In this document: positions 53,559 to 60,421 of the stretch, piece by piece
How the letters are laid out: every line of letters begins with the position of its first letter
Position numbering within the stretch: position 1 is the first letter of the stretch
Position numbers and translations under genes: made by a program
The notes under the pieces: model-generated
What the model was told of the DNA's origin: nothing
The model's database searches: none
Seen by the model: only the letters and a program-made list of their open reading frames with translations
Source: Puniceicoccales bacterium
GTDB taxonomy: Bacteria; Verrucomicrobiota; Verrucomicrobiia; Opitutales; JAIRKQ01
Assembly: GCA_031269795.1 (NCBI GenBank)
Contig: JAISYR010000004.1
Coordinates: 2,458 to 66,457 of the forward strand
Length of the DNA: 64,000 nucleotides
Direction of reading: 5' to 3'

Positions 53559-53586
53559 TTGACACAAAATTGCTGGAGCGTAAACT
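53559..53586 (+). promoter_or_regulatory. candidate sigma70-type promoter of the T3S translocator operon (TTGACA-16 nt-TAAACT)
   Basis: Perfect -35 at 53559-53564, 16-nt spacer, then TAAACT at 53581-53586. An AT-rich UP-like tract (aaatatttatatattttt) lies just upstream. About 125 nt upstream of the 53713 start. Confidence 0.45.
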
Positions 53587-53712
53587 AACCACCGTTAAGG
53601 TATGGTAATAGGCAGAGTAAATTCTTGAAACTGCCCATGGATGGCGGGGGAAAGTTTTCCTACTTTTTTACTTTATCGTTAATGTCGTTAAAAGTTTGCG
53701 GGAGGGGAACGA

Positions 53713-54354
53713 ATGGTTAATGTAAAAGCAAAGACACGGCGCAAGTCTAAGAATAGCCTGCCATCGAAGGTTAAAGATAGCCTGCCACTGGGGGCTAAAT
53801 TGGACTACAGGGAAGACGTCGACAGACTCCATGAAGATATCATGGAAAAAGTAGCTGTTTCTCAGAAAAAGGCAGAGGAAGCTCTGGCTCAAAATACAAA
53901 GTTGGCGAAACAGATACGGGATATCTTAGATAAGCAGCAGAAAGTTTTTGCCGAGCTTGGGTACAAGCCGGGCGAAGGAAATCCCGTTGTCGCAGGTTTA
54001 AAGGATAAGCTGTCGGGGATTGATGCCCTGGCAAAACTTTCCCGGGAGCACGAAATGAGGATATGTGATAGCCTTGGGCTGACCCCGAAAGATGGCTGGG
54101 AACAAGCATTTGCCAGCTTTGAAAAGCCAACAAAAACAGGAAGGACGATGGGAGAGCTTTCGAAGATTCTGCTCCGGGAGGAGAAATCTGAAAAGTCATC
54201 GGCTAGGGACCATGGAACAAAAAAATTTGTCGGAGGTGTGGAGGAATTTTCCGGGTCAAGTGCGAAAGAAAATCAAGCCAAGGATTCTTCCGACGAACGC
54301 AATTCGCAAACTTCCGGAAATACCAAACGGGTGGTAAAAAGGATGAAAATATAA
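53713..54354 (+). CDS. hypothetical highly charged protein (213 aa), first gene of T3S translocator operon
   Basis: Strong SD (GGGAGGGGAACGA-ATG). Lys/Glu-rich, predicted helical, with no signal peptide or transmembrane segment. No recognised family. Confidence 0.65.
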   Translation: MVNVKAKTRRKSKNSLPSKVKDSLPLGAKLDYREDVDRLHEDIMEKVAVSQKKAEEALAQNTKLAKQIRDILDKQQKVFAELGYKPGEGNPVVAGLKDKLSGIDALAKLSREHEMRICDSLGLTPKDGWEQAFASFEKPTKTGRTMGELSKILLREEKSEKSSARDHGTKKFVGGVEEFSGSSAKENQAKDSSDERNSQTSGNTKRVVKRMKI

Positions 54355-54389
54355 TGGATGTCAATTTTTAACAATAGGAGGGGAAGGTT

Positions 54390-57669: not shown

Positions 57670-57695
57670 TACAAGAATTTTAAACTCGCAAAATT

Positions 57696-58844
57696 ATGGT
57701 GGATTGTGTTTGCAATGATGGCTCTCCCTGCGGTGTATGCGGCATGGGTTCTGCAGCACCGGAACCATGTCCGCACGGTGGAACAAGCGAATGTTCCACG
57801 AGTAGTCACTTAGCAAAATTGGGTCTGGGGAAATATACCCTTTCGAATTTATTCGATTTGGAAGGCTCCTCCTGCAGATGCGGAACATCTGTCCAGGGCC
57901 TGCTAGATCAAAATTTGCCCATAGTCTTGGTATATATCCTTACGATGGCAGCGCGTGACCAGGAAACTCTGGAAACTTTTATTAATGACATTCAGATGCA
58001 GCAAAAACGACAAAAAGCTGACATAGCCGCCTCCATAGAAGCGAGAACTGCGGCCCAAAAGAAAAAGGAAGATATAATAAAGGACACGGATGATTGGAAG
58101 ACTAAGGCTAACGTAGACCGAACGGGTGCACTAAGAAAAGATGATGGGTCGAACGACTGTGCAAAGGCAATATTTGCAATATTTGTTGCCCTTGCTGCTG
58201 TGGTTGCCATACTCACATTTGGAGCCACTGCTGTTCTTATAGCGGCTGCAGTGCTGGTAGCAGTGTGTTCGATTGTTTCCATGATAGCTAAAGCGGCCAT
58301 TAGCCGCCATGCAGATATGCGCCAATTTGAAGCAGTAATGGGCTGGATTAATCCAGCACAACTTTTTACGGATGCCATCGTCACTGCCGTATGCGAAATT
58401 GGAGAATACAATCCGAATGATGAAAAGATACAACGGCTTAGAATGGGCCTGCTAATTGCTTTTAATATTATAGCAGCCATAGCGCTGGTGGTGGCAGGAA
58501 TAGCGGCTACAATTTTATCGGGTGGTACTGCGGCACCTCTTATAGCCATGGCAATCGTAGGAATAGTCACCGGTATAATACAATTAGTCTGCTCAGTCTT
58601 GGAGTATCTGCAGGCGGAAAAAGAGCTAACGTTGGCGCAAGCCAGGTTCTCGTTGAACAAAATTCTTGCCCTCATTGAACAGATAAAAATGAATCTGGAA
58701 ATGGTCAACCAAGACATTGACATGTTGATTGAAATGTTTGCATCTAAAATGTCGGATGTTAGGGAGGAATATGAAAAAGCAGCACGAATATTGAAGGAAT
58801 ATAACGATACCAAGCGAATGGTTGCTCAAAATATTAGGTCATAG
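57696..58844 (+). CDS. T3SS hydrophobic translocator, SctE-like (YopB/CopB slot) with Cys-rich N-terminus
   Basis: 382 aa with two long hydrophobic blocks (AIFAIFVALAAVVAILTFGATAVLIAAAVLVAVCSIV and LLIAFNIIAAIALVVAGIAATILSGGTAAPLIAMAIVGIVTGII) flanked by coiled-coil segments. Lies directly after the chaperone. The start codon is uncertain (no SD). Confidence 0.65.
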   Translation: MVDCVCNDGSPCGVCGMGSAAPEPCPHGGTSECSTSSHLAKLGLGKYTLSNLFDLEGSSCRCGTSVQGLLDQNLPIVLVYILTMAARDQETLETFINDIQMQQKRQKADIAASIEARTAAQKKKEDIIKDTDDWKTKANVDRTGALRKDDGSNDCAKAIFAIFVALAAVVAILTFGATAVLIAAAVLVAVCSIVSMIAKAAISRHADMRQFEAVMGWINPAQLFTDAIVTAVCEIGEYNPNDEKIQRLRMGLLIAFNIIAAIALVVAGIAATILSGGTAAPLIAMAIVGIVTGIIQLVCSVLEYLQAEKELTLAQARFSLNKILALIEQIKMNLEMVNQDIDMLIEMFASKMSDVREEYEKAARILKEYNDTKRMVAQNIRS

Positions 58845-58888
58845 GCAATAGATTAAGCATTGGGTATTTAGTAAAAAGGGAGGTCGAG

Positions 58889-60421
58889 ATGACAGAAAGT
58901 ACACAATATACGGTAACTGTTGGACATAATACCAACGTCACAGCAACCACGCAGGATTTAACAGCAGAGCAGCTGGAAGCATTGCGCGAACTGCAAAGAA
59001 CAGCTCCAGGAGACATATCAATTTCCGCGGAGGGAGTAATAACGATTACGACCCAAAAGGGATTGGAATTATTTAATAATTTTTGCCGGCAAAATAATGT
59101 TCTGGATTCGACTAGTACACTGATGCAGATTGAAGTACCGGCAGGTACCACCCTTCCATTGGCAGGGCTGCAAAGTGCTTCGGCTTTCTGTGCCAGGTTT
59201 GGAGGTGGAGAAACAGACCCTTCAAAGATGAGCTTTGTCGAACTCATGACCCTCATGCTCATGATGACCTATGCGTCGGAAGAAGAACGTAGAAGGACCC
59301 TGGCAGAGGTTAAAAGCGTGGGAATGCAAATTGCCATGGAAGTAGCTGTGGCTACATGGGAGACCAGCCGGGATGCTGCAGAGAAAAGTTATAGGGCAGA
59401 AGTTGTTCAAGCCTGGGGAGCTATCGCTTCCGGAATTGCGAGTACAGCAATGGCCGTAGGAAGTGCTTTTTATGCGCTAAAAGCAAGTCCCCACCAAGGA
59501 CAGTTGAGCGAAAACAATAAAAAACTCGAAAATAATCAGCTATTGGAAAACCGAGCAGAACTCCAAAAGGAATTTGACTTGCCAAATACAAATCCAGAAA
59601 CAATTGATTCTGCACGAGCTGGGGTTAATCAGCAAATACAACAAAAAGAGGAGCTAATAAGGCTTAACCAGGAAAAGATGGAAATGAATAGAGATTCCAT
59701 TGCGGCCAATGATAGAACTGTAGCTGACAAACAGATAGAAATAGATGCAAGACAGACAGAAATAGATGCAAGACAGACAGAAATAGACAATATGCCAGAT
59801 GGTTCGGCGAAACAGGGAGCAGTTAGAGAACAGCTTGCAGCAAGACAAGAACAGTTTGCAGCAGAACAAAAACAGCTTGCAGCAAGAAACGAACTGACAG
59901 ACTTGAAAGTGCAAAATTATCATTTAAAAGCTGCAAATGTTAAGACAGAAGGAGACAATAAGAAGCTAGAATCTGAGTTGAAAGGTTTAAAAACCCAAGA
60001 GGCAAAACTGGACCATCTTACCGAAATAGATAGAAAAATACAGGAAAAAGGGTTGGGCCCTCGCGATTCTCTTAGCAAGGGCGAAATTGACGCACTGAAA
60101 AATGCAAATGCGGCACTGGAAGCGGAAGTAGCAGCACTTACGGCAAAAGCCAATTCAATATCCAGCCTTTCCCAATCAATATCGAGCATCATCAAAGGGG
60201 CGCCCGACCTAGTTGCGGCAAGCTACAAACAACAGGCAGCTTTTTTGGAAGCCGATGCTCGGCTATTGGATACCTTCAGGGGGGTCATACAGAGCCAAAT
60301 CCAGTCTGTTGATTCATCGATAAACTCAGCGAACCAAAACATGCAAAAAATTGCCGGTAACCTTAAGCAGGTGTTGGACGAAATCTATAACATAAAGACC
60401 AGCATAGCGCACAATATTTGA
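58889..60421 (+). CDS. T3SS translocator, SctB-like (YopD/CopD slot), coiled-coil rich
   Basis: 510 aa with a strong SD (AAAGGGAGGTCGAG-ATG). Translocator-like segment FVELMTLMLMMTYASEEERRRTL, then a single hydrophobic segment (AWGAIASGIASTAMAVGSAFYAL), a long coiled coil and a C-terminal amphipathic helix. Confidence 0.65.
   Translation: MTESTQYTVTVGHNTNVTATTQDLTAEQLEALRELQRTAPGDISISAEGVITITTQKGLELFNNFCRQNNVLDSTSTLMQIEVPAGTTLPLAGLQSASAFCARFGGGETDPSKMSFVELMTLMLMMTYASEEERRRTLAEVKSVGMQIAMEVAVATWETSRDAAEKSYRAEVVQAWGAIASGIASTAMAVGSAFYALKASPHQGQLSENNKKLENNQLLENRAELQKEFDLPNTNPETIDSARAGVNQQIQQKEELIRLNQEKMEMNRDSIAANDRTVADKQIEIDARQTEIDARQTEIDNMPDGSAKQGAVREQLAARQEQFAAEQKQLAARNELTDLKVQNYHLKAANVKTEGDNKKLESELKGLKTQEAKLDHLTEIDRKIQEKGLGPRDSLSKGEIDALKNANAALEAEVAALTAKANSISSLSQSISSIIKGAPDLVAASYKQQAAFLEADARLLDTFRGVIQSQIQSVDSSINSANQNMQKIAGNLKQVLDEIYNIKTSIAHNI
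59738..59788. repeat. 2.4 x 21-bp in-frame tandem repeat (EIDARQT)
   Basis: The unit gaaatagatgcaagacagaca is repeated exactly at 59738 and 59759, with a partial third copy, inside the 58889-60421 CDS. Confidence 0.9.

Follow-up and report, generated by a model that had tools for sequence, protein, structure and literature searches.

The outer end of a non-flagellar type III secretion system (T3SS), or injectisome, is encoded in Yersinia by the genes lcrG-lcrV-lcrH-yopB-yopD, in which a small protein and a tip-position protein are followed by a class II chaperone and then by the major and the minor translocator. On pCD1 these genes close a longer run, yopN-tyeA-sycN-yscX-yscY-lcrD-lcrR-lcrG-lcrV-lcrH-yopB-yopD. 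Pseudomonas has the same layout in pcrGVH-popBD, and in Salmonella pathogenicity island 2 (SPI-2) the order sseA-sseB-sscA-sseC-sseD likewise places a small basic chaperone, a tip or filament protein, a tetratricopeptide repeat (TPR) chaperone and two translocators in succession; in Shigella the order differs in that ipaD follows ipaC. Here we describe five genes, g1 to g5, that repeat this arrangement in an uncultured Puniceicoccales bacterium (locus-tag prefix LBS22, proteins MDR1528110-MDR1528114; contig JAISYR010000004.1 of assembly GCA_031269795.1, positions 2,458 to 66,457 of the forward strand; this whole stretch of 64,000 nucleotides is called the window below). We consider it highly probable that they form one operon for the outer end of a Ysc-type injectisome. 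The layout is that of a standard tip-plus-translocon operon, and the protein family in its tip position is unusually large, modular and hypervariable and belongs by sequence to no described tip family.

Non-flagellar T3SSs were reported in Verrucomicrobia at the level of the phylum in 2012 (PMC3459982), and our literature searches on Puniceicoccales, Opitutales and termite-associated Verrucomicrobia brought up no paper on a T3SS. Because the sequences of tip and translocon proteins change too quickly for standard searches to follow, large surveys have omitted them (PMC3459982). The public annotation of the five genes, retrieved by exact look-up, names g1 and g2 as hypothetical, g3 as a "tetratricopeptide repeat protein" and g5 as either hypothetical or a "chromosome segregation ATPase"; g4 as called here has no exact counterpart in the look-up collection.

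All five open reading frames (ORFs) lie on the plus strand (Table 1) and are separated by 35 nucleotides (g1/g2), 19 nucleotides (g2/g3), 26 nucleotides (g3/g4) and 44 nucleotides (g4/g5). Strong Shine-Dalgarno sites stand before g1 (GGGAGGGG), g2 (AGGAGGGG) and g5 (AAGGGAGG), and a Sec-type N-terminal hydrophobic segment was found in none of the five proteins. A first-pass annotation of the window had already drawn attention to five co-oriented ORFs with gaps of 19-44 nucleotides, three strong Shine-Dalgarno sites and the lack of Sec signal peptides, and our coordinates, lengths and site positions reproduce that description.

Table 1. The candidate tip-plus-translocon operon and its upstream elements (positions in the window; aa, amino acids)
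Feature	Position	Strand	Description
Promoter candidate TTGACA-16-TAAACT	53559-53586	+	AT-rich tract before it; conserved in six loci
Conserved leader	53587-53712	+	~125 nucleotides; sequence blocks kept in six loci
g1	53713-54354	+	213 aa; LcrG/LcrR-slot protein
g2	54390-57122	+	910 aa; tip-position (LcrV-slot) protein
g2 C-terminal domain	56190-57122	+	residues 601-910
g3	57142-57669	+	175 aa; class II (SycD/LcrH/IpgC-type) TPR translocator chaperone
g4	57696-58844	+	382 aa; SctE-like, putative major hydrophobic translocator (YopB/IpaB/SseC-like)
g5	58889-60421	+	510 aa; SctB-like, putative minor translocator (YopD/SseD-like)

Judged from its sequence, g3 is a class II TPR chaperone of the SycD/LcrH type. 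It matches the NCBIfam model TIGR02552 (LcrH_SycD) at E 8.8e-22 with 77.3 bits, and Pfam TPR_3 scores 23.0 on it, exceeding the cut-off of 20.7. A phmmer search of the PDB returned IpgC (2.8e-8, over query residues 15-147), PcrH (9e-7), AcrH (3.6e-5) and SycD (7e-5), the matches covering almost the entire protein, and hhalign gave 96% to both IpgC and LcrH over 123-144 columns, with the reference sequences taken from pWR501 and pCD1. Model, structure database and profile alignment thus agree with the resemblance to the SycD/LcrH class that the first-pass annotation had seen by eye, and the profile match by which it proposed to check that resemblance was obtained. Because its score lies below the curated equivalog cut-off of TIGR02552 (77.3 versus 104.8 bits), g3 is a divergent member and no equivalog by the NCBI threshold. 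The genes g4 and g5 come directly after g3, both in the window and in every related locus.

A genome scan with one genome per species gave 12 loci, all in metagenome-assembled genomes (MAGs) of Puniceicoccales/Opitutales, and every complete locus among them has the order g1-g2-g3-g4-g5. With no complete locus of the 12 species-level MAGs departing from it, this order lies far beyond chance. Homologues of g3 in other Puniceicoccales MAGs are 55-89% identical to it, the identity over the 12 species is 50-89%, and the conservation of gene order, start codon and promoter over the 12 species argues for purifying selection.

The first-pass annotation had placed a promoter candidate, TTGACA-16-TAAACT, before the genes. 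A consensus scan of the region found 14 sites against 15.0 +/- 3.5 in shuffled sequence, so that on the scan alone, with a site count no higher than in shuffles, the candidate would be weak. Conservation changes that: the site is present in the window and kept in five related loci, and in an alignment of all six upstream regions no difference occurs in the -35 hexamer or in the AT-rich tract on its 5' side, and the -10 hexamer reads TAAACT or TAAGCT. The promoter is kept even in the locus L012, where the upstream context is unrelated and a tmRNA (ssrA) gene is lacking. Within the leader that follows, RNAalifold pairs a UUUCCU element (columns 89-94) with columns 140-145, which hold the g1 Shine-Dalgarno sequence (AGGGGA); the energy of this predicted pairing is weak (-4.9 kcal/mol) and its covariation slight, and it could be a lead towards translational control of g1.

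The link to the T3SS comes from relatives of the module that lie beside sctV. The locus L026 reads 377 aa, TyeA, 128 aa, YscX, 127 aa, SctV, 142 aa, g2-family protein (428 aa), TPR chaperone, 402 aa. In L027, SctU, SctT and SctS are divergently encoded, and the order is 396 aa, TyeA, SycN, YscX, TPR protein, SctV, 148 aa, g2-family protein (1091 aa), then proteins of 192, 421 and 341 aa; the shorter L028 reads SctV, 149 aa, g2-family protein (733 aa), 182 aa. Orthologues of g1 to g3 thus stand directly downstream of sctV in all three loci, joined by a g4 orthologue in L026 and by g4 and g5 orthologues in L027. TyeA and YscX lie upstream in L026 and L027, and a weak SycN match was obtained in L027 only. 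Upstream of sctV, the relatives whose SctV falls in the Puniceicoccales cluster described below have a putative gatekeeper gene first and a YscY-like TPR gene last.

The correspondence with the window holds slot by slot. The window g1 is homologous to the 142-aa protein of L026 (blastp 1.8e-10; hhalign 95.7%) and to the 148-aa protein of L027 (hhalign 92.9%), both of which follow sctV, and through them its position is that of the small gene downstream of sctV and directly upstream of the tip-position gene. Across the three loci, g2 matches the family members at E 3e-30 to 9e-38 and g3 the TPR proteins at E 4e-26 to 2e-35. The orthologues of g4, the 421-aa protein of L027 (hhalign 99%) and the 402-aa protein of L026 (hhalign 98%), both come after the chaperone, and g5 is orthologous to the 341-aa protein of L027 (blastp 1.5e-4, hhalign 79%). 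On account of this homology we assign g1 to the LcrG(/LcrR) slot of a Ysc-like injectisome and g2 to its LcrV slot. As on pCD1, the module is preceded in these related Puniceicoccales by gatekeeper-like, tyeA, sycN, yscX, TPR and sctV genes, and because the sctV-linked relatives repeat the Yersinia order the first-pass description of the gene order as lcrGVH-yopBD-like holds.

SctV itself points the same way. The proteins of these loci share 53-55% identity with Yersinia LcrD and 41% with EscV, so that they are nearer to LcrD than LcrD is to EscV (42%). On the strength of synteny and SctV similarity together, we place the system with the Ysc-type injectisomes. The SctV of L027 falls, at >=90% identity, into one cluster with proteins bearing the NCBI name "SctV [Puniceicoccales bacterium]", and the SctV of this cluster is 54% identical to LcrD. 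The contig encoding one of these NCBI-named proteins (L030) has a gene for a TyeA-domain gatekeeper as well as genes for YscX, a TPR protein and SctV. On a longer Logan contig with the same SctV (L029, 6833-9598), the gene directly after sctV encodes a g2-family paralogue of 800 aa, and a g1-like gene comes next; the order of the two is thus reversed, which suggests a duplication of the tip-position gene. A divergent module was seen in the Puniceicoccales MAG LBH08 (L025, 109-9105), encoding a 2003-aa g2-like protein, a 164-aa TPR chaperone and proteins of 536 and 289 aa. The 2003-aa protein has the last 60 residues in common with g2 and one weak internal match (E 6e-6), and its subfamily has relatives of up to 2984 aa. 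In the clade of the window, the five-gene module is separated from the sctV block.

The two genes after the chaperone encode proteins with the features of translocators. The first-pass annotation had seen two long hydrophobic blocks in g4, which we place at residues 152-204 and 247-305; hydrophilic, probably helical regions flank them, and a C-terminal amphipathic helix ends in QNIRS (hydrophobic moment muH 1.34 over the last 22 residues versus a protein mean of 0.73). The window g4 has no match to PF04888 at E<=1 and none to an NCBIfam translocator model. Its orthologues in L003 and L007 match PF04888 (SseC) with 19.8 bits (E 6e-4), short of the gathering threshold of 30.2 bits. The g4 family profile aligns to residues 252-414 of IpaB (hhalign 57%, E 1e-4), a region that holds the IpaB membrane segments. 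This is the one exception among hhalign comparisons of g4 and g5 with single EspD, EspB, YopB, YopD and IpaC sequences, which gave nothing significant. The sequence evidence supports g4 as a distant SctE-like (SseC/IpaB-like) protein and not as a certified member of the family.

For g5, the description of a single hydrophobic segment followed by a C-terminal amphipathic helix is confirmed, the segment being moderate (maximum Kyte-Doolittle KD19 of 1.44 at residues 179-197) and the helix strongly amphipathic (muH 1.71 versus a protein mean of 0.67 +/- 0.40). The central region contains tandem 7-residue repeats, xIDARQT, at residues ~282-299, and the long hydrophilic region of variable length probably includes a coiled coil. 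The NCBIfam model NF052420 (translocon_SseD) matches g5 at E 3.9e-6 over residues 148-234, which span its only hydrophobic segment, with 27.1 bits against a curated cut-off of 130. Three of four g5 orthologues match this model as well (L001 at 7.9e-7, L008 at 3.5e-5, L007 at 4.4e-4), the one from L001 covering profile positions 9-145 of 152. These matches support g5 as a distant SctB-like (SseD-like) protein, again not a certified member. When the hydrophobic proteins are set against the translocator families, as the first-pass annotation proposed, matches therefore recur, to SseD for g5 and to SseC for g4 orthologues, but all of them are sub-threshold; we call g4 and g5 only distant SctE-like and SctB-like proteins because every family match lies below its curated cut-off.

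The best profile matches of g5 (SseD) and of the g4 orthologues (SseC) are to SPI-2 proteins, and g4 and g5 score higher on the SseC and SseD models than on those of YopB and YopD. The matches are nevertheless far below the curated cut-offs, SctV is Ysc-like and not Ssa/Esc-like, and the size of g2 is unlike that of SseB, which we take to belong to the EspA-like Pfam family.

Two further observations concern the translocator candidates. The N-terminus of g4 (57696-57900, residues 1-68) is rich in cysteine, with the pattern MVDCVCNDGSPCGVCG...C..C......C...CRCG and 12 cysteines in the protein as a whole. This form is conserved in a close clade (L001/L002, L008, L012, L013 and L016), is replaced by a different Cys-rich N-terminus in L007 and is absent from L003, L004, L018, L022 and L023. 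It is possible that these cysteines form a metal-binding cluster, which would be unusual for a T3SS substrate. Among g5 orthologues, length ranges from 376 to 970 aa owing to expansion of the repeat-rich central region (coordinates are 11699-14611 in L001, 9107-10846 in L008 and 11706-12836 in L003), and the L001 and L008 proteins have SMC/Rad50-type matches.

The two genes upstream of the chaperone had been described as having no recognisable family, so that part of the apparatus appeared undescribed. The first half of this statement stands, as neither g1 nor g2 matches a Pfam or NCBIfam family; the second does not, as the two fill, in divergent form, the known slots of LcrG and LcrV and are not unknown parts of the apparatus. 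The g1 protein has no PDB family either. It is basic and mostly hydrophilic, with a conserved core of ~110 aa and an invariant basic C-terminal tail, KRxVKRMKI, and it is conserved in 12 of 12 species loci. At 213 aa it is longer than LcrG (95 aa), to which it has no detectable similarity.

The difference from Yersinia in the tip position is one of both size and sequence: g2 has 910 aa, and members of its family from about 300 to 2984 aa, as against 323-326 aa for LcrV, and there is no LcrV sequence similarity. Full-length g2 likewise has no sequence family in the PDB. A word-indexed homologue search with g2 returned only g2 itself, the same search with a C-terminal profile returned five short fragments only, and two metagenome scans with distant g2 subfamilies found no loci. 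An exhaustive HMMER search gave 58 relatives, 68-2984 aa long, and with few exceptions the match extends to the C-terminus. The family has so far been seen only in Puniceicoccales/Opitutales, both among named members and in 12 of 12 representative genome hits.

Three regions can be distinguished in g2: the N-terminus (residues 1-50) and a C-terminal domain (~600-910) are conserved, and the helical middle (~150-600) is hypervariable. Measured over six orthologues in blocks of 50 residues, conservation falls from 0.46 at the N-terminus to 0.10-0.26 in the middle and rises to 0.52-0.76 in the C-terminal blocks. An N-terminal motif, GYxITxxxxxxVxNPFLDL, is common to the family, as is a terminal motif of ~70 residues, NIDVxEQ...YGDxLSTDxQxMTTKMxQY...TQxxKSxGDYxKxxxSNIR, and length ranges from 428 to 2003 aa among loci with the same gene order. 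Weak internal repeats lie in the middle (54390-56200, residues ~90-460), where residues 291-324 resemble 413-458 and residues 90-145 resemble 222-285 (blastp E 1e-4 to 4e-2); the pattern suggests that the hypervariable middle may be built of repeated helical modules.

A single-sequence AlphaFold prediction of full-length g2 was unusable (predicted local distance difference test, pLDDT, 39.8). AlphaFold2 with a 31-sequence alignment modelled the last 310 residues confidently, at a pLDDT of 82.9 and a predicted template-modelling (TM) score of 0.61. In the model two long helices, each of some 56-67 residues (101-156 and 243-309 in model numbering), enclose an alpha/beta insert. This predicted arrangement of two long helices and an inserted mixed domain may be shared with IpaD/SipD, and the top Foldseek match in the PDB is IpaD(122-321), at an insignificant E of 0.013 with TM scores of 0.26/0.40; flagellins and hook-filament junction proteins (FlgK/FlgL) make up most of the ranks that follow, and MakA stands at rank 50. 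A PDB profile search with the g2 family returned PrgI-SipD, IpaD and SipD at E 0.05-1, aligned on their C-terminal helix, whereas the profile of the 310-aa C-terminal domain matched nothing relevant among PDB sequences. Unlike IpaD and SipD, g2 has ~600 extra N-terminal residues.

The end of the protein resembles the T3SS needle. Pfam T3SS_needle_F was matched by 12 of 31 g2-family C-terminal fragments (best E 2.4e-4), and no other Pfam family was matched by more than 2 of the 31. When the g2 family was aligned by hhalign with a needle alignment (MxiH, YscF, EscF and PrgI), the score was 23.5 against 9.4 +/- 1.9 (maximum 14.8) in 40 column shuffles, and over its last ~35 residues g2 aligns from end to end with the C-terminal helix of the needle subunits (...SNIR versus ...QNFR in MxiH). 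The likeness is confined to one helix and is sub-threshold, the needle subunit being a hairpin of ~80 aa and g2 a multidomain protein. Tip families gave less: LcrV (PF04792) matched 1 of 31 C-terminal fragments at E 0.065 and EspA (PF03433) 1 of 31 at E 8e-3, and hhalign of g2 against IpaD, LcrV and EspA stayed below 3% throughout (EspA 0.1%). These fold and sequence lines are individually weak, and it is because they point in the same direction when combined that we describe g2 as a needle-compatible axial protein with a tip-like domain. Its position together with this faint resemblance, seen in alignments and in the predicted model, suggests a tip role.

An amphipathic C-terminal helix that closes with xN(I/F)R is common to g2 (SNIR, 57050-57122), g4 (QNIRS, 58770-58844), IpaC (GNIRA, from the ipaC 3' end in L010) and MxiH/PrgI (QNFR), the ending of g4 being close to that of IpaC, and may be a common docking or export determinant. 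A gatekeeper (SctW) identity for g2 was rejected: the loci already have a TyeA-containing gatekeeper upstream, and g2 shows no similarity to SepL or YopN.

The conserved termini of g2 and its hypervariable middle of variable length resemble flagellin, EspA or Bordetella Bsp22 subunits as much as LcrV, and we tentatively entertain the idea that g2 polymerises into a tip filament or sheath in the manner of those proteins, the conserved termini building a helical core and the middle (200 to >2500 residues) decorating its surface, in place of a short LcrV-like pentamer. The needle-like last helix, the prominence of flagellins and junction proteins behind IpaD in the Foldseek list, the single family member that matches Pfam EspA and the spread of 428-2003 aa between species under one gene order all speak for a filament. 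Against it, g2 has no significant sequence similarity to flagellin, EspA or Bsp22, the EspA comparison by hhalign being a case in point, and the best structural match, IpaD, is a tip protein that does not polymerise. A filament would in any case be a variant of the tip-plus-translocon explanation and no negation of it. We would likewise put forward only as a speculation, with the odds against it, that the g2 family is an undescribed class of giant modular injectisome tips of about 300 to nearly 3000 aa; it is equally conjectural that the termini of such a tip dock on the needle or polymerise from it in the way of flagellin or EspA while the middle serves as a rapidly evolving host-facing surface.

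A different view would make g2, and perhaps g1, a secreted effector or adhesin that has an export or docking helix in common with axial proteins, with the true tip encoded elsewhere or absent. The known tip proteins are 3-9 times smaller than g2, which belongs to none of the LcrV, IpaD and EspA families, its hypervariable middle suggests pressure from host interaction, and the L029 contig has its 800-aa paralogue right after sctV. We think this unlikely in view of the strict position of g2 between a g1-like gene and a class II chaperone in every locus examined, the sctV-linked ones included. Those loci contain no alternative tip candidate, and the model of g2 has a tip-like helix pair with an inserted domain, to which the needle-like terminal helix is added.

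Assignment of the operon to the outer end of an injectisome has to be weighed against several results that count against it. No basal-body genes lie in the window or within +/-10 kb of the 12 same-clade modules, and no match was obtained when 14 Yersinia core proteins were compared by tblastn with the window and the module loci (L001-L009, L012-L023). The chaperone-binding motif [PV]xLxxP, which we located in IpaB (65), YopD (58) and YopB (50), is found in none of g2, g4, g5 and their orthologues, so that g4 and g5 differ from the Yersinia translocators in this respect as they do in the detachment of their module from sctV. Every translocator and tip assignment falls below curated family cut-offs, and the Foldseek search with the g2 model gave nothing at E<=1e-3, the TM scores of its best match lying at 0.26-0.40. 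Finally, the g1 family reaches only 6.4% over 14 columns against LcrG, and hhalign comparisons of g1 with LcrG, LcrR, YscE/G/X/Y, CesAB, CesD/D2, EscE/G and SepL gave nothing significant.

The first of these results could also be read to mean that the operon is an orphan remnant whose injectisome has been lost and whose genes are dead or co-opted, for example for export by a flagellar T3SS. Core T3SS genes are absent from the surroundings of the module in 12 species, and the organism may be a reduced symbiont, as the "Nucleococcus cluster" context would allow (PMC8204192). A remnant is nonetheless very improbable in our judgement: none of the five ORFs is disrupted, conservation over 12 species extends to gene order, start codon and promoter, scattered T3SS loci are normal in Chlamydiales (PMC3459982), and sctV, sctS/T/U, yscX and tyeA are present in related Puniceicoccales. 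The suggestion that the genes have nothing to do with T3SSs and form an operon of a TPR protein and an alpha-helical pore-forming toxin, to which the weak matches of g4 orthologues to the membrane-helix families MakA, ApoL and SLATT-type and the MakA entry in the Foldseek list might lend colour, is all but ruled out by synteny with sctV, the g1-g3 orthologues (with g4 in two loci and g5 in one) being embedded with SctV, and with TyeA and YscX in L026 and L027, while the TPR protein matches SycD/LcrH/IpgC specifically and matches to SseC and SseD recur.

Returning to a tip-plus-translocon module, we infer this function for the present genome, with a basal body that would be encoded elsewhere in it, the module being detached from a gatekeeper-tyeA-sycN-yscX-yscY-like-sctV block. 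Transcription would begin at the TTGACA-16-TAAACT promoter, whose conservation is observed and whose activity is presumed. The chaperone g3 would keep the membrane-active g4 and g5 in the bacterial cytoplasm, and g2 would be exported through the needle and dock on its end via the C-terminal pair of long helices and the needle-like last helix, forming a tip structure that would expose the long hypervariable middle. From its position, g1 would most likely partner g2 in the cytoplasm or regulate it. On contact with the host, g4 and g5 would then insert into the host membrane as a translocation pore, by analogy with YopB/YopD and IpaB/IpaC.

Read in this way, the operon extends the proteobacterial type of injectisome layout to Puniceicoccales, an order of Verrucomicrobiota, and alignments of the g2 family provide a sequence and structure handle for finding further members of the tip-position family. 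A large, hypervariable tip-position protein would also lend itself to testing how needle tips diversify with their hosts. Protist endosymbionts of the "Nucleococcus cluster" belong to this order (PMC8204192), and if the bacteria studied here are eukaryote-associated symbionts, as some of these relatives are, the module becomes a candidate determinant of host interaction. Should the giant variable tip prove real, it would suggest arms-race or host-range tuning of the T3SS in verrucomicrobial symbionts, possibly associated with gut protists or insect guts.

The surroundings of the operon are partly shared between species. A tmRNA gene (ssrA, 53130-53507, plus strand; tag peptide GNNVINVDFSNGVNKAAA) lies directly upstream of the promoter, and a tmRNA 3' end is also found upstream of the module in L013, L017, L001 and L008. 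Downstream, a convergent exonuclease III-like gene ends at 60488, and Exo_endo_phos is found in syntenic loci. Elsewhere in the window, two adjacent ORFs of 378 and 502 aa (26108-28785, minus strand) have no family or features that would support a role in a T3SS; the 502-aa ORF contains a near-perfect tandem duplication of ~48 aa, KVTTxLVxKIAQMHRAAKGKAGKFVEKFKHxKTSLASAISNFRRQFPK. A tRNA-Arg(CCG) gene (37616-37690, plus strand) overlaps the 5' end of a mechanically called YidC ORF (37618-39726), and because of this overlap the actual yidC start is placed further downstream.

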